Of a DNA stretch of 64,000 nt, positions 22,287 through 63,449 are shown in pieces. This DNA is from an uncultured Bifidobacteriaceae bacterium (GTDB lineage Bacteria > Verrucomicrobiota > Verrucomicrobiia > Limisphaerales > UBA11358), in contig CAYUGC010000001.1 of the NCBI GenBank assembly GCA_964444085.1, positions 9,857 to 73,856 of the forward strand. Reading direction: 5' to 3'. Each line of letters begins with the position of its first letter. The stretch's first letter is position 1. Position numbers and translations under genes: made by a program. The notes below the pieces were generated by a model, which searched no databases, was not told where the DNA came from, and saw only the letters and a list, made by a program, of their open reading frames with translations.

Positions 22287-24317
22287 ATGAAAACCCAGAA
22301 ACCGCTTAAACGAGGCCGGCTCCAGAAAGCTGGCGGACGCTGGTTTTGCCAAGGTTATATGCTGGCTGGCTTGGTCTTGGCTGGGCTGGGCGTTTCGGTT
22401 CGGGCGCAGACTTCGGCCAACGTCACAGATTTTGGCGCGGTGGGCGATGCTGTCCAGTTTTACGTCAACACCACGGCTAAATCATCCATGGTAACGACGA
22501 CTAACCAGTTTTCCAGCGCCGACATCGGCAAGACAATTGAAGTCTTCAAGGTCGGCGTGCAGACCGTCGGTATCAATTCTTACGGCATCAATTCGACCAA
22601 CCGCCTCGACCTCATCGCGACGATCACCAACGTGGTCAGCGGGACGAATCTTTACCTTTCCGTGCCACCGCAGGCGACCTTGCAAAACACCTTTGCTACC
22701 TGTGGCACCGACAACACGTCGGCCATCCGCAAGGCCATCGCCGCTGCCGGCTTGGACGCGACGATTAATTTTCCCGACGGCGTGTTTCTGTGCATGCCGA
22801 CGTTTCACAGCGGAGCCGACGGCTACACGCTGGCGGCGATTTGTCTGAATCGCGGCGGGCTGCATTTTGTCGGCACCGGCAACACCACGCTGCTTTCGCG
22901 CGGGGCTTTTCGCCCGGAGGATTTCTCGGCCTATGGCTGGGGCACGCATCCGTATCGCGGTTATTTGTTCCAAGTCGTCGCGCCGGTCACGAATGATTTA
23001 CCGATCATCGTGGAAAACCTGACGCTCGACGGCGGCCTGCAGCAGGGCAATCTTGATGTCCATGGCATTTACGTAAACGAGATTGACGGCCTCGGTTGGG
23101 ACGTGGGCCATTGCGCGTGGTTGTGCTACGACACCAGCGGTGGCAACACGGAGACCGCGACACACCAGATGTTCACCAACATTGTCGTTCAGCACTGGCG
23201 CGGCGAGATGTTCAAGTCCATTGACCAGAATCGAAACGGCAACATCAGCATCCACAACTCGGTTTTCCGCGACGGCGCCGCGACGGCGCTGAACATCTAT
23301 GGCTCGTGGGACGTGACCAGCAACCGTTTTGAAAACCTGTTCCAAGTCGCGGAATACTTTCAGGCCTACTACACGAACACCTCGTATTTCCAAAACAACT
23401 TCGTCACCAACATCACCGGCAACGGCTGGGCGTGGAACGGCGGCGTGTGGACGGCACCGCCCTTCATCATGCGGGGCAATACATTTTTTTTTACCGGTGT
23501 TGGCCAAAACGGCATCCAGACGATGCCGGCCGCCAACATCAGCGTTTTGAACAATGAAATCCACTGCGCCGATTATATGAGCGTCTTCAATCTCGGCGCG
23601 ACCGGCGCCCAGGGCAGCGTGATGAACAGCAACATCCTCATCGCGGGCAATTCAATCTATGCGCCCGCCAAGCTGTCGGCAGTGTTCGGGTTTGGCGGCA
23701 GCGGCATCAACGGCGTCAGCGGCCTGACGATCTGCAATAACCATGTCTCCGTGCCGCAGCAGATTTTCAATGTTGTCAACGCCGGCCCGCAGCAAATCAA
23801 CGTCAGCTACTCTAACAACGTGATTGATTGCCCGGCTTCCGCATTTCAAACCGGCGCGCCGGGCGCTAACAATTCCCCCTTCGTGTTGGTTCCGGCCAAC
23901 AGCCCCTACACCGCCCAACCGCTCTATCATAGCAGCGTCCGGACCAACCTCATTTCCTACGCCGGCGGGCCGAAACAGCGTCTGGATTATGTTCCCACTG
24001 GCGACATATTTGTTCTCGACGATTCCACGGCCAGTCAGATTCCAGCCGGTGCCTATTTGGAATTCGATAACCGCACTAACCGCTGGGCAACCTACAACGG
24101 CGGCACTGGCGGCGATGTAATCGTGATTCCGTCGGTGAACCCGGTCAGCCCAATCCCCGTCGCCAGCGGCCAGCTCGTGACGTTCTATTGGAACGGCACC
24201 GCATGGACGACCAACACAGCTGCCATTGTGCCGCCCAATGGCGGCACCATCACCATCACCAATCCGCCTGCCACGCCCGTGCACACACCGCCGCCCGGTT
24301 TCCACGTCGTCCATTGA
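22287..24317 (+). CDS. Secreted right-handed parallel beta-helix protein (pectate-lyase superfamily-like)
   Basis: Signal-like N-terminus. NVTDFGAVGDA start typical of this superfamily. Many N/G/I/V-rich coil repeats (NNHVS, SNNVIDC, GNSIYA). Pro-rich C-terminus. Confidence 0.6.
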   Translation: MKTQKPLKRGRLQKAGGRWFCQGYMLAGLVLAGLGVSVRAQTSANVTDFGAVGDAVQFYVNTTAKSSMVTTTNQFSSADIGKTIEVFKVGVQTVGINSYGINSTNRLDLIATITNVVSGTNLYLSVPPQATLQNTFATCGTDNTSAIRKAIAAAGLDATINFPDGVFLCMPTFHSGADGYTLAAICLNRGGLHFVGTGNTTLLSRGAFRPEDFSAYGWGTHPYRGYLFQVVAPVTNDLPIIVENLTLDGGLQQGNLDVHGIYVNEIDGLGWDVGHCAWLCYDTSGGNTETATHQMFTNIVVQHWRGEMFKSIDQNRNGNISIHNSVFRDGAATALNIYGSWDVTSNRFENLFQVAEYFQAYYTNTSYFQNNFVTNITGNGWAWNGGVWTAPPFIMRGNTFFFTGVGQNGIQTMPAANISVLNNEIHCADYMSVFNLGATGAQGSVMNSNILIAGNSIYAPAKLSAVFGFGGSGINGVSGLTICNNHVSVPQQIFNVVNAGPQQINVSYSNNVIDCPASAFQTGAPGANNSPFVLVPANSPYTAQPLYHSSVRTNLISYAGGPKQRLDYVPTGDIFVLDDSTASQIPAGAYLEFDNRTNRWATYNGGTGGDVIVIPSVNPVSPIPVASGQLVTFYWNGTAWTTNTAAIVPPNGGTITITNPPATPVHTPPPGFHVVH

Positions 24318-24375
24318 AGCCGCCCGGTTGCGTGGTAAAAAATTCCCGGTCTTGCGCCAGCGGTGGCGGAAAGCC

Positions 24376-25617
24376 ATGACTTCCCCCTCAATCAAATTGC
24401 CTTCGTGGATTTGCAGCCAGATTGGCGCCCGCGAGCACTTCGCCATCCCGCGCGCATTGCATCTAAACGGCCAGCTCGCCGCGCTCTGCACGGATTTTTG
24501 GGCCGGCCCGGTGACGCGCAAACTGGCTGCCGGCAAGCTGCGCCCGCTCGCCGCGCGGTTTCATCCCGATTTGACGCGGCAATCAGGACTTGTCCATTCA
24601 TGGAACTTGCGTTCGCTCGGCTGGGAATTTCTCCTGCGCCGGAAATTTGCCGGCGAGCCGTATCTTGGTTTTATCGAGGTCGGGAAAAGATTTTCCACTA
24701 GCGTGCGCGAATATTTGAAACGCCGGACGGACTTGAATGGCCGTTCCCTTTTCTTTGCCTACGACACCGGCGCATTGGAATCGCTCGCGTGGTGCCGCGC
24801 ACAAAAAATCAAATGCGTCCTGAACCAGATGGATCCGAATCGCGTGGAAGTGGACCTGGTGCGCGCGGAGGAAACAAACTGGCCCGGCTGGTCCCTGCGC
24901 CGCCTGCAGGTGCCGGAGGAGTATTTCGCCCGGCGCGAACAGGAGTGGTCACTGGCCGACCGCATCGTCGTGAACTCGGAATTCTCCCGGCAGGCTTTGC
25001 TCCAGCAGGGCGTGCCCGCCGAAAAGCTGGTCGTCATCCCGCTGTGCTTTGAAACCGGCGAAGCCAATTGTGAATCCGAAATCGTAAATCATAAATCAGA
25101 CGCTCCGCTGCGCGTGCTGTTTCTCGGCCAGGTGATTTTGCGCAAGGGCATCCAGTATCTGCTCGCCGCCGCGCGGCAACTGGAAAAGGAAAACATCCAT
25201 TTCGATGTCGTCGGGCCGGTTGGAATTTCGCAGGCGGCCATCTCATCCGCGTCCGGCAACGTAACGTTTCACGGCCGCACCAGCCGTGATCAGGCAGCGG
25301 ATTGGTATCGGCAGGCGGACGTGTTTGTCCTGCCGACACTCTCGGACGGCTTTGCTCTCACGCAACTGGAGGCGATGGCACACGGCCTGCCGGTCGTCGC
25401 CACGCCGAACTGCGGCGCGGTCGTCACCGACGGCGCGGACGGCTTCCTCGTCCCGCCGCGCGATGCGGATGCGCTGGCGCAAACTTTTAGGCGCTACCTC
25501 ACGCAGCCGGAACTGCTGCCGGCGCAGGCGGCAGCGGCGCGGGGAAAATCCCGCCAGTTCACGCTGAACCGGCTGGCGGAAAACCTGGCGCAACTGGAGG
25601 CTGATTTGCGGAAGTGA
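24376..25617 (+). CDS. Glycosyltransferase family 4, with a repeat-encoded linker insertion
   Basis: C-terminal domain LRVLFLGQVILRKG...VFVLPTLSDGFALTQLEAMAHGLPVV. The inter-domain linker ANCESEIVNHKSDA is encoded by a heptamer array at 25073-25100. Confidence 0.75.
   Translation: MTSPSIKLPSWICSQIGAREHFAIPRALHLNGQLAALCTDFWAGPVTRKLAAGKLRPLAARFHPDLTRQSGLVHSWNLRSLGWEFLLRRKFAGEPYLGFIEVGKRFSTSVREYLKRRTDLNGRSLFFAYDTGALESLAWCRAQKIKCVLNQMDPNRVEVDLVRAEETNWPGWSLRRLQVPEEYFARREQEWSLADRIVVNSEFSRQALLQQGVPAEKLVVIPLCFETGEANCESEIVNHKSDAPLRVLFLGQVILRKGIQYLLAAARQLEKENIHFDVVGPVGISQAAISSASGNVTFHGRTSRDQAADWYRQADVFVLPTLSDGFALTQLEAMAHGLPVVATPNCGAVVTDGADGFLVPPRDADALAQTFRRYLTQPELLPAQAAAARGKSRQFTLNRLAENLAQLEADLRK
25073..25100 (+). 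repeat. Intragenic AATC-phased heptamer array (4 units)
   Basis: aatccga aatcgta aatcata aatcaga, in frame inside the GT4 gene. Its units match the hairpin arms at 62114-62185. Confidence 0.7.
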
Positions 25618-25683: not shown

Positions 25684-27192
25684 GTGCTGAACCTGTTGTT
25701 CATATTTCCCTTTTCGTTTTGGGTCGTGATCGCGCTGCTGACCGGCGGCGGCATCGCGGCGTTCCGGCGCATCCACGACGCCACTAGCATCCCGCTACTG
25801 GCGGTGCTGGGCACGACCGCCGCCTGGTATGTCGGCGACGCGTTCTATAATGACTACGCGAACAACCACGCCAAAATATTTACGCCGGAGACCCTGTCCG
25901 GCGCGTGGTGGCAGGTGGCGTGGTTCATCCTCGTGATTCTGCTGACGGTGCGGCCGCTGCACGAAAGAATCAATGGCCCGCTGGCCGCGCGGCCCAGCGG
26001 CGTGATGCAGTTGTTCCAGCACGGCGTCGGTTTTCCGGAAATCCAAAAGCAGCTAAACATCCTGTTCACCGGCTGCGCGGCGGTGTGGCTTATCCTGTTG
26101 GTGATCGCACTGATCCTTCTGAAGGCCGAAATTCCCTATTACCTTTTCCCGTTCCTCGGCTATAAGGCGAACCCCTGGTCGCACGGGCGCATCGGCTCCG
26201 GCTTCGACGCGTTTTCCATCATCGCCGTCTATCTGCAACTGCTGACAACCTCGATGTTTGGCGTGGTTGCCGCGCTGGCGACCACGCCGCGCGTCCGGCG
26301 GCTCGCGTTGCTGTTCGTGCTGCTGTCGTGGCCGGCGTTCGTCTTCGACCGCACGCGCAACACGATGCTGGCGATGGCGGTGCCGGCGGTGTTGAGTTGG
26401 GTGTTCCTACGGCTGCGCGGCGGGATGTGGAAAAAAGTCCTCGTGCTGCTTGCGTGCTTCGTCGTGGTTAACACCTGGATGAAGTTCGTCATCGCCAACC
26501 GCTCCTCGATGAGCATTACCGACGCGTTTCACAACAAAGGTCTAAATCTCGCCGCCCAGGAAAAAGTCCACAACGAGGGTTTGAACATGTTTGAGGAATT
26601 GTGCTGGGTCAGCACGTTCATTGACAACGGCCAATACCAAATCAACTGGGGACAGCGCTATTTTGCCGAACTGGTGAACCCGATTCCGCGCGGCCTCTGG
26701 CACGGCAAGCCGCTCATCGGCCTCGACTACGCCATGGCGCGCGGCCACGGCGACGCCAACGACACGCACGGCGGCGTCAATACCACCATCTCCACCGGCT
26801 TTATCGGCCAGGGCGTCGTGAACTTTGGCCGCGTGCTTGGCCCGGCGGCAGCGTCCATTTTGATGAGTCTCTGGATCGTCTGGCTCGCGCGGCTGGACTT
26901 GACGGTGCATCAGCTCGGCCGGCTGCCGCTTTACAGCCTCGGCCTCATCCTGACTTTCAACCTGGGTCGCGACATCACACTCATCACCTTGTATCCATTC
27001 GTGTTTGGCGCGCTGGCCATCTGGTTTCTGGAACATTATCAACTCATCAAGACGTCGCCGGAAACCAGCGTCACAGTGTCCTCGCCAACGCAAAAAAGTG
27101 CCCGCACAGCCGCTGCCGGAAAAATGCCCTTTGCCCGGCGCGCGACCGGCGGCTTTGTCCGGCGCGACAATTTTCAACGCCCGCCGAATTGA
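25684..27192 (+). CDS. Putative O-antigen/EPS polymerase (Wzy-like) polytopic membrane protein
   Basis: About 10-12 hydrophobic segments with a large loop in the C-terminal third. GTG start. Lies in a Wzc/Wza context. No sequence motif is diagnostic. Confidence 0.5.
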   Translation: MLNLLFIFPFSFWVVIALLTGGGIAAFRRIHDATSIPLLAVLGTTAAWYVGDAFYNDYANNHAKIFTPETLSGAWWQVAWFILVILLTVRPLHERINGPLAARPSGVMQLFQHGVGFPEIQKQLNILFTGCAAVWLILLVIALILLKAEIPYYLFPFLGYKANPWSHGRIGSGFDAFSIIAVYLQLLTTSMFGVVAALATTPRVRRLALLFVLLSWPAFVFDRTRNTMLAMAVPAVLSWVFLRLRGGMWKKVLVLLACFVVVNTWMKFVIANRSSMSITDAFHNKGLNLAAQEKVHNEGLNMFEELCWVSTFIDNGQYQINWGQRYFAELVNPIPRGLWHGKPLIGLDYAMARGHGDANDTHGGVNTTISTGFIGQGVVNFGRVLGPAAASILMSLWIVWLARLDLTVHQLGRLPLYSLGLILTFNLGRDITLITLYPFVFGALAIWFLEHYQLIKTSPETSVTVSSPTQKSARTAAAGKMPFARRATGGFVRRDNFQRPPN

Positions 27193-28468: not shown

Positions 28469-29695
28469 ATGATCAAGTCCGCTCATCTCACGGCGTCGGT
28501 TTCGCGCAAGGCCGGCGGGCTGTTTGACGCGGTGCTGCGGTTGGCGCAGTCGGAGCAGCAGCTCGGCGCGACGGTGAAAGCCTTCGGCCTGCGCGACGAA
28601 AACACCGATGCGGATCTGCCGGCATGGGCACCGGCACCGGTGGCGGCATTTCCGCCTGGCTGGCCGAACGGCATCGGTCGCGCGCCCGGATTTCTTGCGG
28701 AGCTGGAGGCGTTCGCGCCGGACATCTGCCACACGCATGGCTTGTGGCTTTATCCCAGCGTCGCCGTCAATAATTACGGACGAAAAACCAAACGGCCTTG
28801 CGTCATCTCGCCACACGGGATGCTCGACCCGTGGGCGCTGAAAAATTCGCGCTGGAAAAAACAAATCGCGTGGTATTTATTTGAAGCGGCGCACCTGCGC
28901 GGCGCGCGCTGCCTCCGTGCGCTTTGCCAGTCAGAAGCTGATTCCATCCGCCAGCTCGGACTCAAAAACGAGATCGTGGTCATCCCGAACGGGATTGATT
29001 TGCCGTCCGGCGTGACGCCCGCCGCGCCACCATGGAATAATTTTGTCGCGCCCGGGAAAAAAGTATTGCTCTTCCTGAGCCGGATTCATCCGAAGAAAGG
29101 GTTGGTCAATTTGCTGAAAGCGTGGCCGGCAAATCAGCAATCGGCAATCGGCAATCAGCAATCTGGTGATTGGGTTCTCGCCATCGCCGGCTGGGAGCAA
29201 GGTGGACACGAAGCGGAGTTGAAACAGCTTTGTAACGACCGGGAAATTCCCTTCGCCGACATTCGCGAGCCATCCTCCATTCTCCATTCTCCATCCTCCG
29301 TGCTGTTTCTCGGCCCGCAGTTCAACGCCAACAAAGTCGCGTGTTATCATCATTGCAACGCGTTCGTGTTGCCGTCGTTCAGCGAAGGTTTGCCAATGGT
29401 CGTGCTCGAGGCGTGGGCGAATGCCAAGCCGGTGCTGATGACGCCGGAATGTAATTTGCCGGAAGGTTTTCCAGCCGGCGCGGCGCTGAAAATCGAACCA
29501 AACGAAGCGGGCATCGCCGCCGGCCTGCAAAATCTTTTTGCCATGAGCGGCGCAGATCGCGCCGCGATGGGCAACCGTGCGCGGATGCTGGTGGAAGCTC
29601 ACTTCACTTGGACGCAAGTTGGCAGCCAGATGCACGCTGTCCACGAATGGATTTTGGGCGGCGGCGCCAGGCCGAATTGCGTCTTGGACGCTTGA
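28469..29695 (+). CDS. Glycosyltransferase family 4, with two repeat-encoded insertions
   Basis: LLFLSRIHPKKG. AFVLPSFSEGLPMVVLEAWANAKPVLMT. Low-complexity peptides ANQQSAIGNQQSG and EPSSILHSPSS are encoded by heptamer arrays. Confidence 0.75.
   Translation: MIKSAHLTASVSRKAGGLFDAVLRLAQSEQQLGATVKAFGLRDENTDADLPAWAPAPVAAFPPGWPNGIGRAPGFLAELEAFAPDICHTHGLWLYPSVAVNNYGRKTKRPCVISPHGMLDPWALKNSRWKKQIAWYLFEAAHLRGARCLRALCQSEADSIRQLGLKNEIVVIPNGIDLPSGVTPAAPPWNNFVAPGKKVLLFLSRIHPKKGLVNLLKAWPANQQSAIGNQQSGDWVLAIAGWEQGGHEAELKQLCNDREIPFADIREPSSILHSPSSVLFLGPQFNANKVACYHHCNAFVLPSFSEGLPMVVLEAWANAKPVLMTPECNLPEGFPAGAALKIEPNEAGIAAGLQNLFAMSGADRAAMGNRARMLVEAHFTWTQVGSQMHAVHEWILGGGARPNCVLDA
29132..29166 (+). repeat. Intragenic heptamer array aatcagc aatcggc aatcggc aatcagc aatctgg
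   Basis: Read directly. ABBA arrangement of two unit variants. The reverse complement of the array at 58544-58575 uses the same aatcggc unit. Confidence 0.7.
29270..29299 (+). repeat. Intragenic heptamer array ccatcct ccattct ccattct ccatcct
   Basis: Read directly. ABBA arrangement, 104 nt downstream of the previous array in the same gene. Confidence 0.7.
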
Positions 29696-55846: not shown

Positions 55847-57816
<1,970 letters not shown>

Positions 57817-57818
57817 AT

Positions 57819-57906
57819 CCATCCTGCTCGTCCCCATCGTCATCCCCATTCCCCAAAATAATTTTCAAATTTGAGGATGACGATGAGGACGAGGATGAGG
57901 ATGATG
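57819..57906. repeat. Imperfect long hairpin of hexamer-phased units, second copy of the 287-354 family
   Basis: Left arm catcctgctcgtccccatcgtcatccccattcccc, AT-rich loop, right arm gaggatgacgatgaggacgaggatgaggatgatg. Shares the core catcgtcat / atgacgatg with 287-354. Confidence 0.5.
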
Positions 57907-57914
57907 TTTCCGGC

Positions 57915-58922
57915 ATGACCACCGAGATTCTCTCCACCCATACTCCGGCGCTTTTCCAGAAAGCCGTCCGCCGCGCCGCCGAACTGCTGCGCGCCGGCGA
58001 AGTGGTGGCGCTGCCGACGGAAACGGTCTATGGCCTCGCCGCCAATGCGCTGGACGAAAACGCCGTCGCGAAAATTTTCCAGATCAAAGGCCGCCCGGCG
58101 CACAATCCCATCATCGTTCACGTTGCGGGAAACGAAATGGCCAAAAGTTGTGTGGGGGAATTTTCGGCGGCGGCGGACAAACTTTCCAAATCCTTCTGGC
58201 CTGGCCCGCTGACGCTGGTGCTGCCGCGCGCGAAAAATATTCCTGATGTTGTGACTGCCGGTGGCGAAACCGTGGGCGTGCGTTGGCCGAGCCATCCGTT
58301 CATGCAGGCGGTGATTCGTGAATGTGGTTTTCCGCTGGCTGCGCCGAGCGCCAATTTGTCCAACCAGATTTCACCGACGAACGCGGAACACGTCCGCGCG
58401 CAGCTCGGCGGAAAAATTCCGCTCATCGTGGACGGCGGGCAGTCGCAGGTTGGCATCGAATCCACGGTGCTGGACTTGACGGTGGCACCGGCGCGGATTT
58501 TGCGGCCGGGGATGATCCACGCGGAATCGCTGGCGGCGGCCGGATTGCCGATCGCCGATTGCCGATCGCCGATGGAAGACACCTCATTGAAAAGCCCTGG
58601 TCAATTGAAGAGGCACTACTCGCCAAAGGCAAAATTGATTATCACCTCTTGGAAAGACGATGCCGATCTGGCCGCGCAAATTGGCAGTTGGAAATTGGAG
58701 GTCGAAAATGTCCACATCATCGCCCATACCAACATCCCCGCCAGTTTTGGCGCGGCAAACGTGAGCGTGATTCCGCACGACGCGGAGGCGTTTGCGCGGG
58801 CGCTTTACGGGGAGCTGCACCGCTGTGACGCGGCGGGCGCGAAGCTGATTATTGTGGAGGCACCGCCGGAGGCACTGGCATGGGCCGGCATCGCCGACCG
58901 GCTGCGGCGCGCGGCGGCGTGA
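57915..58922 (+). CDS. tsaC: L-threonylcarbamoyladenylate synthase (Sua5/YwlC-type TsaC), with a repeat-encoded linker insertion
   Basis: YrdC-domain blocks LPTETVYGLAANA, KGRPAHNPIIVHV, APSANLSNQISPT. Sua5 C-terminal domain after the linker. The linker GLPIADCRSPME is encoded by a heptamer array. Confidence 0.8.
   Translation: MTTEILSTHTPALFQKAVRRAAELLRAGEVVALPTETVYGLAANALDENAVAKIFQIKGRPAHNPIIVHVAGNEMAKSCVGEFSAAADKLSKSFWPGPLTLVLPRAKNIPDVVTAGGETVGVRWPSHPFMQAVIRECGFPLAAPSANLSNQISPTNAEHVRAQLGGKIPLIVDGGQSQVGIESTVLDLTVAPARILRPGMIHAESLAAAGLPIADCRSPMEDTSLKSPGQLKRHYSPKAKLIITSWKDDADLAAQIGSWKLEVENVHIIAHTNIPASFGAANVSVIPHDAEAFARALYGELHRCDAAGAKLIIVEAPPEALAWAGIADRLRRAAA
58544..58575 (+). repeat. Intragenic heptamer array ttgccga tcgccga ttgccga tcgccga
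   Basis: Read directly. ABAB arrangement. Its reverse complement contains aatcggc units identical to those at 29139-29152. Confidence 0.7.
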
Positions 58923-60755: not shown

Positions 60756-62111
60756 TCAAAATCCTTCCAAGTGATATTCGTGCAGCTTGCGATGGAACGT
60801 CCGCCGGCTCATGCCGATTTTTTTCGCCGCGTGCGTGCGGTTGCCGTCGGTCTCTTTCAGGGCACGGATGATCAATTGCTTCTCTGCATCTTTCACGGTC
60901 AAATCTTTTCCAGCAAGAATTTTCGGTTCGACCGCGCCGCCGTGCCGCACCGACGGCGGCAAATCCCGCAGCGTCACACGCTCGCCCCGGCTCAAAACCA
61001 CCGCGTGCTCAATGGCCGTCCGCAGCTCGCGCACGTTGCCCGGCCAGGAGAAATTCATCAAGGCTTCGAGCGCGTCCGCCGTGAAATCGTTCACCGCCTT
61101 GCCATTTTCCTTGGCAAACTCGCGCAGGAAACTCTGCGCCAGCAGCGGAATGTCGCCCGTCCGCTCGCGCAGCCGCGGCAGTTCAATCTCCACCACGCGC
61201 AGCCGGAAAAACAAGTCCTCGCGGAATTTTCCGGCCTTCACCAGCTCTTCCAAATTTTTGTTCGTCGCCGCGACCAGCCGCACGTCGGCGGTCAGCGTTT
61301 TGTTGGAACCGACGCGTTCAAAAGTTCTTTCGCCAAGAAACCGCAGCAGTTTCACCTGAATCGTCGCGTCAATCTCGCCGATTTCATCCAGGAAAAGTGT
61401 TCCGCCCTGCGCCTGCTCGAAGCGCCCGATGCGCCGCTCGTGCGCGCCGGTGAACGCGCCGCGCTCGTGGCCGAACAGCTCGCTTTCCAGCAGCGTGGGC
61501 GCGAGCGCCGCGCAATGCACGGTCACGAACGGCTGCTTGGCGCGCGGGCTCAACTGATGCAGCGCCTTCGCGATGAGTTCTTTGCCCGTGCCGCTTTCGC
61601 CCAGCACCAAAACCGTCGCGCGCGTCGGCGCGACCTGCTGGATGATCTCGAAAATCTCCGTCATCACCGGCGACTGGCCGATGATGTTTTCCATCCCGAA
61701 CTTGGCGTCCAGCTGCTTGCGCAGCGAGACATTTTCCACCTCAAGGTTTTGCTGTTTCAGTGCGCGGGCAATCCGCATTTCCAGTTCATCAATTTGCAGC
61801 CGGCCTTTGGCGATGTAATCATCCGCGCCGCGCTTCATCGCGTCCACCGCCAGTTCCTCAGAGCCGTAAGCTGTCATCAAAATGCAGATCGGCGGTTTTG
61901 TCAGCGACTTCGCCCGTGAAATCAATTTCATGCCGTCCTCGTTCGGCAGGCGGTAATCGGTGAGCATCACGTCGAAATTTTCCGACTCCAAAAGATTCAT
62001 CGCCGCCTTCGCATCCTCGGCGATGTAAACGTCGTAGCGTTCCTCGAGCGCCGCGCGCAAACCTTCGCGCGTCGTCTTCTCGTCATCCACGATGAGTAAT
62101 GTCGGCTTCAT
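60756..62111 (-). CDS. Sigma-54-dependent response regulator (NtrC family)
   Basis: Receiver [13 protein letters not shown]...[13 protein letters not shown]+ Walker [15 protein letters not shown] sigma-54 contact loop. C-terminal Fis-type [23 protein letters not shown]. Confidence 0.9.
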
Positions 62112-62113
62112 AA

Positions 62114-62185
62114 GATTTACGATATGCGATTTACGATTTACGAGCCGCCCGCCGAAACGCGCGTAAATCGTATATCGTAAATCGG
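62114..62185. repeat. Long hairpin of heptamer-phased units in the kinase / regulator intergenic spacer
   Basis: Left arm gatttacgatatgcgatttacgatttacgag. Right arm cgtaaatcgtatatcgtaaatcgg. About 22 nt are complementary with one mismatch. GC-rich loop. Confidence 0.65.
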
Positions 62186-62195
62186 AAATTCAATT

Positions 62196-63449
62196 TCATC
62201 CTTTCGTCTTGGCTTCGAGTAACCGTGGTTTTCTTTCGTGCAAGGGCAACCAAATCCGAAAGGTCGTGCCTTTGCCGACGTGGCTTTCCAGTTCGATGCG
62301 GCCGTTGTGCGCGCGGATGATGCGCTGGACGATCATCAGGCCGAGGCCGCTGCCTTTTTTCTTGGTCGTGTAAAACGGCTCGAAAATGCGGTTGAGCTGT
62401 TCCTGCGGAATGCCGCCACCAGTGTCGGTCACGCTCACCCAAACCGCGTCGCTATTTTCGCCGGTCTGGAGTGTGAGTGTACCGCCGGTGGTCATCGCCT
62501 GCGACGCATTCTTCACGAGGTTCACCAACACCTGCTGGATTTGCGTCGTGTCAATCGGCGTCGCCGTCAATTGTCGCGCCGGTTTGGTCTTAATGACGAT
62601 GCCGCGGTTCTCGATTTCCGGTCGCAGCAAATCCACCGTTTTCTCCACCACGTCGTTGAGTGAACAAATTTTCATTATCAGCGGCGAGGGCCGGATCGCG
62701 CCGAGAAATTGCGTGACGATGTAATCCAGCCGGTGAATCTCGCCCTTGGCCACTTCTAAATACTGTTCCAGCTTGCCGGCGACTTCGACGGCTTCGGTGG
62801 TGGGACAGGCTTCCGGCCTGTCCAGTTTCCGTTTTGAACCGGACAGGCGAGACGCCTGTCCCGCCACTTTCAACTTTTTCACCTCGCGCTCCATCAGTTG
62901 CAGATGGATGTGCAGCGCGTTGAGCGGATTGCCGATTTCGTGCGCCACGCTGGCGGCGAGGAGCGTGAGCGCCTGGACGCGTTCGCTTTCGATGGCCTCG
63001 AAAGTTTTCTGCCGTGCCTCGGTGGCGTCGTGCAAGATCAGCGCCACGCCGGAACTGCCAATCGCCGTGCCGTCGAGCGGTGCGGCGTAGAGTCGGAGAA
63101 ATCGCGGACGCGGATAATGCACCTCGAATTCGTGCCGCGTGACGTGCGCGCCGCCGTCGTGATCGGCGCGGGAAATCTTTTCCCAGTCCACCTCCGGCAG
63201 AAATTTTGTGATGTGCAATTCCTCTTCGCCCGGCTGCATGCCGATGAGCCGCGTGACGGCGTGGTTGAAGTAAATCACCCGGCCATGTTCGTCCACCACC
63301 AGCACGCCGTCCTCGATGGTGTTGAACAGCGTTTCGAGAAAACTCCGTTCGCGCGCGAGGCGTTGGACGACGGTTTGCAACCCTTCAGTGTCCAGCCGTC
63401 CGATACGGCCAAGCACTTTATCGAGAAAACTGGATTTGGCTGCTGCCAT
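62196..63449 (-). CDS. PAS-domain sensor histidine kinase (NtrB-like, soluble)
   Basis: PAS block TIEDGVLVVDEHGRVIYFN. H-box ASVAHEIGNPLNAL. N-box LVNLVKNASQAM. G-boxes DTGGGIP and GSGLGL. No TM segments. Confidence 0.85.
   Translation of the reverse strand: MAAAKSSFLDKVLGRIGRLDTEGLQTVVQRLARERSFLETLFNTIEDGVLVVDEHGRVIYFNHAVTRLIGMQPGEEELHITKFLPEVDWEKISRADHDGGAHVTRHEFEVHYPRPRFLRLYAAPLDGTAIGSSGVALILHDATEARQKTFEAIESERVQALTLLAASVAHEIGNPLNALHIHLQLMEREVKKLKVAGQASRLSGSKRKLDRPEACPTTEAVEVAGKLEQYLEVAKGEIHRLDYIVTQFLGAIRPSPLIMKICSLNDVVEKTVDLLRPEIENRGIVIKTKPARQLTATPIDTTQIQQVLVNLVKNASQAMTTGGTLTLQTGENSDAVWVSVTDTGGGIPQEQLNRIFEPFYTTKKKGSGLGLMIVQRIIRAHNGRIELESHVGKGTTFRIWLPLHERKPRLLEAKTKG
62802..62861. repeat. 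Two GGACAGG...CCTGTCC hairpins embedded in frame in the kinase gene
   Basis: gggacaggcttccggcctgtcc (62802-62823) and ggacaggcgagacgcctgtcc (62841-62861, perfect 9-bp stem). They encode AGQASRLSGSKRKLDRPEACPT between the two DHp helices. Confidence 0.7.

Follow-up and report, generated by a model that had tools for sequence, protein, structure and literature searches.

In the 64,000-nt stretch analysed here (the window; contig CAYUGC010000001.1, assigned to the Limisphaerales, Verrucomicrobiota), the gene of a GT4 glycosyltransferase of 408 aa (28469–29695, + strand) carries two tandem arrays of 7-nt units. The two arrays are probably heptanucleotide microsatellites generated by slippage, i.e., instances of a period-7 tendency of Verrucomicrobia as a whole, and would be retained in the gene only as far as the reading frame and the affected protein loops tolerate them.

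Array 1 (29132–29166, + strand) consists of the units aatcagc, aatcggc, aatcggc, aatcagc and aatctgg and encodes NQQSAIGNQQSG (residues 221–232). Array 2 (29270–29299, + strand) consists of ccatcct, ccattct, ccattct and ccatcct followed by cc, lacks any G and encodes PSSILHSPSS (residues 267–276). The translation of the open reading frame (ORF) includes ...KAWPANQQSAIGNQQSGDWVLAIAGWEQGGHEAELKQL...IREPSSILHSPSSVLFLG..., and the array peptides are separated by the stretch DWVLAIAGWEQGGHEAELKQL. An original prediction, made by a model that saw only the letters and a list of ORFs, had placed both arrays within the GT4 ORF and quoted their peptides together with the conserved segment that separates them; reading of the sequence, analysis with Tandem Repeats Finder (TRF) and translation of the ORF confirmed these assignments. 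TRF located array 1 at 29127–29163 (period 7, 5.1 copies, 86% matches, score 51) and array 2 at 29270–29299 (period 7, 4.3 copies, 91% matches, score 46). Both arrays are built of head-to-tail 7-nt units in at least three copies each, as is characteristic of heptanucleotide simple sequence repeats (SSRs). They comprise 4–5 imperfect units, lie in the middle of the gene and have no more than two identical units next to each other.

The chance level was determined by shuffling the window under Markov-1 and Markov-3 models, which keep di- or tetranucleotide statistics. Four period-7 arrays with a score of at least 46 were present in the window, as compared to 0.000 (Markov-1) or 0.007 (Markov-3) expected per 64 kb. 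At a score of at least 40, five arrays were observed and about 0.013–0.02 expected. A strict period-7 scanner (mismatch penalty −3) picked up arrays 1 and 2 alone in the window; the array census was made with TRF instead. An array identical to array 1 was present on an independent metagenome contig (L097), the identical GT4 protein was recorded on four contigs from several sources, and arrays homologous to arrays 1 and 2 were present in assemblies of separate projects.

Homologues of the host GT4 number in the thousands. The best 120 share 59–100% identity, the full-length ones among them have 398–457 aa, and the named ones are labelled Verrucomicrobiae or metagenomic. In an alignment of 50 orthologues, length variation clustered at three points, i.e., after NGIDLP, KAW and ADIR, and many of the sequences carried seven-residue periodic peptides there (e.g., NRKSEIGNRKSE, KQKAESRKQKAE and SQKPEARSQKPE). 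Nowhere was the protein less conserved than in the peptides of arrays 1 and 2, and the reading that they are conserved peptides was rejected. When the orthologues were checked for peptides that are conserved in distant homologues without nucleotide periodicity, the opposite was seen: the peptides are not conserved, and the periodicity recurs in relatives.

For comparison at the DNA level, 80 orthologous loci were taken from genome assemblies and four close metagenome loci were added (84 orthologues in total). Three sites were compared: site 1 (W219–W235, array 1), site 2 (R266–F280, array 2) and the linker, site 3 (P179–W189). Among the 80 loci, the closest was L001 from a Limisphaerales metagenome-assembled genome (MAG), with 87% protein identity. 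In most Verrucomicrobia orthologues the DNA at the three sites showed period 7, with units unlike each other. Site 1 was occupied by GAAATCG, CAACCGG, AGAAGCC, TAAATCG, AAAGCAG, AATTCAA, GGGGCAG or CTCAACT, and site 2 by CCATCTT, CCATCTC, CAACTCC, TTTCAGC, CGAACTC, GGTCAGT or CTCCAAG. Short aperiodic loops (7–13 aa at site 1 and 5 aa at site 2) were found in orthologues labelled Geobacter, Desulfopila, Desulforhopalus, Bryobacter, Thiobacillus, Halochromatium, Planctomycetaceae and Kiritimatiellia. The proposal of two independent insertions in one enzyme was not supported, since both sites and the interdomain linker carry heptamer arrays in many orthologues. By sequence comparison, sites 1 and 2 and the linker are permissive places where arrays recur or persist, instead of places of one-off events.

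How the units change was followed in a codon alignment with the closest relatives, whose nucleotide identity was 88.7% for L001, 84.4% for L081, 84.0% for L084, 82.2% for L082 and 80.6% for L083. In the register of these relatives, array 1 reads as five degenerate heptamers (AAATCAG, CAATCGG, CAATCGG, CAATCAG, CAATCTG). At the same position L083 has AAATCGG, three CAATCGG and CAATCCG; L082 has four AAATCGG and AAATTTG; L084 has AAATCGG, three AATTCGG and AAATCTG; and L002 has AAATCAG, three CAACCGG and CAATCCG. In the window and in these four relatives, site 1 measures 45 nt between the flanking Trp codons. L081 has four units of the unrelated heptamer CTCCGCA, while L001 has exactly one CTCCGCA and is 21 nt shorter; this is the one three-unit difference seen in the DNA comparison. 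At site 2, the window (CCATCCT, CCATTCT, CCATTCT, CCATCCT) compares with CCATCTT, CCATTCT, CCATTCT and CCACCCT in L001, CCATCCT, CCATCCT, CCATTCT and CCACCCT in L081, CCAACTT, CCAACTT, CCAACTC and CCAGCTT in L084 and a perfect CCAGCAA array of four units in L082. Across the window and its five closest relatives, site 2 is constant at 30 nt; in L002, two extra codons precede three CCATCTT and one CCATCTC. Since the same substitution in every unit is incompatible with independent point mutation, the units must evolve in concert.

Among proteins that are about 90% or more identical, length was mostly invariant, and differing lengths traced to insertions or deletions exactly at the array sites. 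Examples are 7 additional residues at site 1 in P0168 as compared to P0164 (about 90% protein identity) and 5 additional residues at site 2 in P0181 as compared to P0050; such events at array sites also occurred among proteins about 90–99% identical. A scan for the site-1 flanks retrieved 18 metagenome contigs with gaps of 21, 36, 39, 42 or 45 nt, all multiples of three. The 21-nt versions keep about two units, e.g., CAAATTA GAAATTC. No out-of-frame allele was present among the 80 genome loci, the four close metagenome loci and the 18 metagenome contigs, all of which are consensus assemblies, and truncated cluster members were fragments or had breaks unrelated to the arrays. The claim that in-frame heptamer repeats are tolerated in the coding DNA of an otherwise ordinary GT4 was borne out. 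The arrays recur in relatives, and all array-bearing alleles examined are in frame. For the further suggestion that the repeats are selected no evidence was found; peptides and repeat units turn over freely.

The host enzyme itself showed no unusual features. Pfam assigned Glyco_trans_4_4 (PF13579, residues 17–175) and Glycos_transf_1 (PF00534, residues 194–372), and no NCBIfam equivalog was reported at or above cut-off. The AlphaFold model, computed from the 50-sequence alignment, had a mean pLDDT (predicted local distance difference test) of 85.4 and GT-B architecture. Its best PDB matches in Foldseek were GlgM, PimA, PimB', MshA and BshA (E ~1e-15); a PDB sequence search returned a single weak match. 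E306 and E314, with EX7E-like spacing, were invariant among the 50 orthologues. By sequence and predicted fold, the enzyme is thus taken to be an ordinary retaining GT4 glycosyltransferase of GT-B fold with intact catalytic motifs.

On the AlphaFold model, in conjunction with Foldseek, the array peptides mapped to loops. The array 1 peptide lies between helix 211–224 and strand 235–240, where model confidence is lowest (pLDDT < 50 for residues 226–229). The array 2 peptide lies between strand 262–264 and strand 278–282, in the helix-to-strand connection that follows the one with array 1, and the third site of the orthologue comparison is the long coil that connects the two domains. In Rossmann-type domains, ligands are bound at the C-terminal strand ends and the helix-to-strand connections are on the opposite face. 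Since these connections face away from the ligand side, both arrays are expected to lie far from the catalytic cleft, as judged by predicted topology and knowledge of the fold and not by a measured distance.

The original prediction had noted that the unit variants follow an ABBA order in both arrays, which is correct, and had proposed to test whether this symmetry forms cruciforms or hairpins. Computed folding gave no support for such structures. As compared to shuffles, RNA folding yielded z = −0.79 for array 1 and z = +1.00 for array 2, and DNA folding of the whole 208-nt segment yielded z = −0.04. A search for inverted repeats revealed that the arrays form none beyond short scattered pairs at chance level. 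ABBA as a structural signal was therefore rejected. The order is a mirror order of unit variants and not a reverse complement, and it is not conserved at site 2 of L001 and L081. Moreover, two A and two B units allow only three arrangements, one of which is ABBA. Arrays 1 and 2 as an inverted pair were likewise rejected, since the reverse complement of CCATYCT, AGRATGG, is unrelated to AATCRGC. Comparison with site 1 of L084 suggests that the ABBA look arises when homogenisation has most recently affected the central units, with older variants persisting at the edges. In four orthologues (L011, L014, L024 and L025), site 2 carries a purine-rich array (e.g., CAGAAAG or CTGAAAT) directly followed by a pyrimidine-rich, roughly reverse-complement array (TTTCAGC); this double array encodes KAESRKQK... 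and then ...FSVSRFQLSAF and has the potential to form a hairpin within the coding sequence.

The excess of period-7 arrays extended across the lineage. Non-overlapping TRF period-7 arrays with a score of at least 36 were counted over the entire fetched loci. The 56 loci labelled Verrucomicrobia (821 kb) contained 259 arrays, i.e., 3.15 per 10 kb, whereas a single array was found in 14 loci of other phyla (248 kb; 0.04 per 10 kb). Ten loci with doubtful bin labels (154 kb) contained 41 arrays (2.66 per 10 kb). Single Verrucomicrobia loci reached 26–29 arrays per 10 kb in the raw TRF count. With the window included, 219 of 307 arrays were located inside stop-free ORFs of at least 90 aa, and about 90% of the DNA was 'coding' by the same crude caller; the arrays are thus relatively enriched between genes, yet mostly genic. 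Over all arrays, copy number peaked sharply at 4.x; 118 of 219 arrays in ORFs fell into this mode, as compared to 20 of 70 between genes (Fisher p = 3e-4). The stronger mode in ORFs fits in-frame steps of three units, from one to four.

The 307 arrays comprised 121 distinct canonical units. The share of unit pairs no more than one mismatch apart was 21% within a locus, 7.6% when the units came from different loci and 1.8% among random heptamers. In some loci one or two units dominated: AAAAGCT was present in all six arrays of L018 and AACGGAC in 7 of the 14 arrays of L073, while L008 had AAGATGG in six and AAAGCAG in five arrays. Dominance of one or two units across different sites of a 7–21 kb stretch has no obvious explanation in plain local slippage and hints at spread or homogenisation between sites. 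Adjacent arrays were inverted relative to each other in 8 of 103 pairs, with cases in L018, L026, L028, L056, L066 and L073. Several bins carried labels at odds with their genes. Four labelled Bifidobacteriaceae (L006, L011, L013 and L023), one labelled Pseudomonadales (L024) and one labelled Limnocylindria (L052) have orthologues about 50–67% identical to this Limisphaerales gene. Heptamer densities were Verrucomicrobia-like in L006, L011, L024 and L052, and no arrays were present in L013 and L023. The taxon labels of these six bins look wrong.

These patterns are best accounted for by the following sequence of events. Slipped-strand mispairing with a strong period-7 bias would create and remodel arrays throughout the genome. 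To survive within a gene, an array would need an insertion-tolerant place, such as a helix-to-strand surface loop, an interdomain linker or a terminus, a sequence without a stop codon in any of the three phases and a length that keeps the frame. Since 7 is not divisible by 3, surviving length changes would mainly be three-unit (21-nt) steps. Collapse of an array to one or two units and its re-expansion would then spread the remaining unit variant through the array. This would result in a fixed length with concerted unit change, a single leftover unit in seemingly array-free relatives, and central units that are alike next to older edge units. At the protein level, the arrays most likely amount to passive, disordered extensions of loops. 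From the comparisons above we infer slipped-strand mispairing as the generator, collapse and re-expansion as the cause of homogenisation, and the passive nature of the peptides.

Several points weigh against this explanation or reduce its precision. Slippage is known here from comparative patterns and not from direct observation. The unit repertoire is non-random, and nearly all arrays of the window share an xAAATCx/xCAATCx core; pure slippage on arbitrary seeds gives no obvious reason for this, so that a factor with sequence specificity may be involved. Length differences at the sites are in some cases 3 or 6 nt instead of 21 nt. The split into coding and intergenic arrays came from a crude longest-ORF caller, which chose an antisense ORF even at the host GT4, so that the proportions are approximate, and the taxon labels of MAGs are partly unreliable. 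In addition, the intergenic arrays of Xanthomonas also peak at four units (PMC4692102), and the frame filter alone is therefore insufficient to explain the four-copy mode.

The window contains further heptamer arrays. The repeat that the original prediction had noted in the neighbouring GT4 gene (ORF 24226–25617) is present: TRF located an array of GAATCC, GAAATCG, TAAATCA and TAAATCA at 25066–25100 (+ strand), between the Pfam domains at residues 224–274 and 291–439, which is equivalent to site 3 of the orthologue comparison. A second array (58543–58573, + strand; GATTGCC and two GATCGCC) lies in a TsaC/Sua5 gene directly after the YrdC domain and encodes GLPIADCRSPM; the reverse complement of its unit, GGCAATC/GGCGATC, belongs to the unit family of array 1. 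In this ORF (57705–58922), TIGR00057 spans residues 85–275. A third array (1462–1491, + strand; GAAATCT/CAAATTT, 4.3 copies) encodes NLKSQISNLKP, the first residues of an S-adenosylmethionine-dependent methyltransferase ORF. Thus, the genic arrays elsewhere in the window occupy an interdomain linker, a linker after the YrdC domain and an N-terminus. TRF also revealed an intergenic inverted pair at 62114–62189, (GATTTAC)n and (GTAAATC)n separated by an 18-nt spacer, whose unit TAAATCG is of the family of the 25066–25100 array. This pair is flanked by ORFs on the minus strand (60756–62111 and 62196–63449); it could form a long hairpin and is possibly a terminator or regulatory stem. The xAAATCx/xCAATCx core is common to nearly all arrays of the window, coding and intergenic, with the exception of array 2 (CCATYCT). 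The notion that repeat invasion is a property of this one locus was not upheld, as like arrays occur in the TsaC/Sua5 linker, at the methyltransferase N-terminus, in an intergenic spacer and throughout Verrucomicrobia loci.

Five other readings were weighed against slippage under a frame and loop filter. The first goes further than the patterns described above and is unlikely: in place of generic polymerase slippage, a sequence-biased process dedicated to creating and homogenising blocks of about four heptamers (loosely GAAAxCx/xAAATCx) may operate in Verrucomicrobia. It could take the form of an enzyme, a templating RNA or a repair pathway. Loops and linkers, including those of polysaccharide glycosyltransferases, would then serve as a reservoir of fast-evolving in-frame cassettes or of low-frequency ON/OFF switches.

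Second, the arrays might be a selected feature of the protein, with seven-residue periodic hydrophilic or Ser/Pro-rich loop extensions needed by the enzyme, e.g., as a flexible tether or for contact with a partner or the membrane. This would account for the persistence of arrays at the same loops, for the filling of three specific sites in many orthologues and for the lengths that are common in related genomes, exactly 15 aa at site 1 and exactly 13 aa at site 2. However, even at 81–89% nucleotide identity the site-1 peptide is not conserved (NQQSAIGNQQSG, NRKSEIGNRKFD, NRNSEFGIRKSD and ALRTPHSALRTS), and the closest relative L001 and orthologues of 400 aa do without the extension at site 1. 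Together with the short loops in orthologues outside the phylum and the low model confidence at the site-1 loop, this renders a selected peptide very unlikely.

Third, the arrays could be nucleic-acid elements, i.e., binding sites or RNA/DNA signals of a lineage-specific factor, as proposed for GGGACCG of Geobacter and TAACTGA of Beggiatoa, or products of an enzyme that acts on specific sequences, which would make their location inside genes incidental. The non-random units, which are similar within a genome, the core shared by coding and intergenic arrays of the window, the loci dominated by one unit (AAAAGCT in L018 and AACGGAC in L073) and the hairpin-capable inverted pairs are in line with this proposal. 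It is nonetheless just as improbable as a selected peptide: units are swapped freely at orthologous sites of close relatives, even to unrelated ones (CTCCGCA and CAATCGG), the 307 arrays comprise as many as 121 canonical units, no structure was predicted for arrays 1 and 2, and no candidate factor turned up.

Fourth, the gene could be a contingency locus in which gain or loss of a single unit switches the GT4 ON or OFF and thereby varies a surface polysaccharide, as does neuO for the capsule of E. coli K1. A tract of units that do not divide evenly into codons, within a surface-polysaccharide glycosyltransferase, is the classic setting, the array sites are hot spots of insertion and deletion among near-identical proteins, and neuO is a direct precedent (PMC13001214). 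However, long perfect tracts were not found; the tracts are short, imperfect and located mid-gene, with 4–5 units. None of the 18 metagenome alleles and none of the 84 orthologues was out of frame, as compared to 65.6% of complete K1 genomes with neuO OFF. Moreover, like arrays occur in the housekeeping TsaC/Sua5 gene and in intergenic DNA, and clusters at 90% identity or more are mostly constant in length. Phase variation of the GT4 by the arrays is thus not supported by the alleles compared and is considered highly improbable, although OFF alleles may occur at low frequency. Finally, chance similarity or an assembly artefact, in favour of which nothing can be cited except the small size of the arrays, is effectively refuted by the shuffles (at most 0.007 arrays expected and four seen), by the same array on the independent contig, by the identical protein on four contigs and by homologous arrays from different assembly projects.

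The neighbourhood of the host gene comprises three more GT4 genes, a hexapeptide acyltransferase gene and an exosortase EpsH gene. Between 22287 and 33112 the order is GT4, a 502-aa protein without Pfam match (25684–27192), GT4, GT4 (the array host), hexapeptide acyltransferase, exosortase EpsH and GT4. The gene order is conserved in four close relatives (L081–L084), which have an additional Glycos_transf_4 gene (PF00953) at the end of the locus. The locus is a polysaccharide cluster of the PEP-CTERM/exosortase type of Limisphaerales, and the 502-aa protein may be a polymerase or a ligase-like membrane component. Elsewhere in the window, a period-6/9 repeat (TGAGGA / GATGACGAT) at 57872–57906 encodes the acidic peptide EDDDEDEDEDD in a long ORF started by TTG before the YrdC domain. 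It is probably located upstream of the true TsaC/Sua5 start (MTTEIL...) and may be non-coding. The segment 48001–54000 had a GC content of 0.50–0.53, as compared to about 0.60 in the remainder, and may be foreign or recently acquired.

For the host GT4 itself, the arrays have little consequence: the gene should be annotated as an ordinary GT4, whose loops the arrays most likely decorate without harm. As a whole, the phylum appears to seed 7-nt microsatellites into protein loops and linkers, at about 80 times the density of other phyla at the same orthologous locus. This provides a natural experiment on the evolution of a non-triplet microsatellite under a frame filter, on the positions of a fold that tolerate insertions and on the reason for the bacterial preference for period 7, a standing question since heptamers were reported to be over-represented in 2007. 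On the practical side, as hot spots of insertion and deletion, the arrays can disrupt both the assembly of Verrucomicrobia MAGs and the gene calls made on them, and they inflate apparent protein divergence.

The arrays belong to a known kind of bacterial heptanucleotide SSR. Heptamers are over-represented among bacterial SSRs, and slippage related to the polymerase footprint, i.e., the DNA segment held by the polymerase, has been hypothesised (PMC4692102, citing Mrazek 2007). GGGAATC arrays of Xanthomonas are mostly intergenic, have a mode of four units and occasionally form inverted pairs, and heptamer arrays of GGGGAYT occur in Nostoc (PMC4692102). As in the SSRs of Xanthomonas and Nostoc and the short tandemly repeated repetitive sequences (STRR) of cyanobacteria, tandem 7-nt units, about four per array and a genome-wide period-7 excess were observed here. 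Length and sequence likewise vary at the same position in close relatives, inverted pairs are occasional, and an origin by slippage has been proposed. In contrast to the Xanthomonas and Nostoc type, which is mainly intergenic and has one genome-specific G-rich unit, the arrays described here are mostly in ORFs (219 of 307 by the crude caller, with arrays 1 and 2 in a verified gene) and have many units that are not G-rich. As regards a single genome-specific consensus unit, the arrays of the window share a loose core except for CCATYCT, and across loci units are more similar within a locus than between loci.

In Geobacter metallireducens, 49 elements of four tandem GGGACCG heptamers are located within and between genes (PMC2700814). 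These have a single consensus and are read as regulatory RNA elements, whereas many units turn over at orthologous sites here; all three sites are devoid of arrays in L027, the Geobacter orthologue of the host GT4. In neuO, which encodes the O-acetyltransferase of the E. coli K1 capsule, AAGACTC repeats switch the gene; 3–53 perfect units are located at the 5' end, 65.6% of complete K1 genomes are OFF, and a longer repeat is reported to raise catalytic activity (PMC13001214). Both cases have in common a heptamer repeat within the coding sequence of a polysaccharide-modifying enzyme. neuO is in frame at certain copy numbers only, with three units encoding a seven-residue peptide repeat. It differs from the arrays described here, which have 4–5 imperfect mid-gene units, an unconserved peptide and no OFF allele found. 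No report of heptamer arrays in Verrucomicrobia was found in the literature searched, the coverage of which was incomplete, so that the pattern may already be described. Relative to the known heptamer SSRs, the differences are the phylum, the predominance of intragenic loops and linkers, the multitude of units and their concerted turnover at a fixed in-frame length at orthologous sites.

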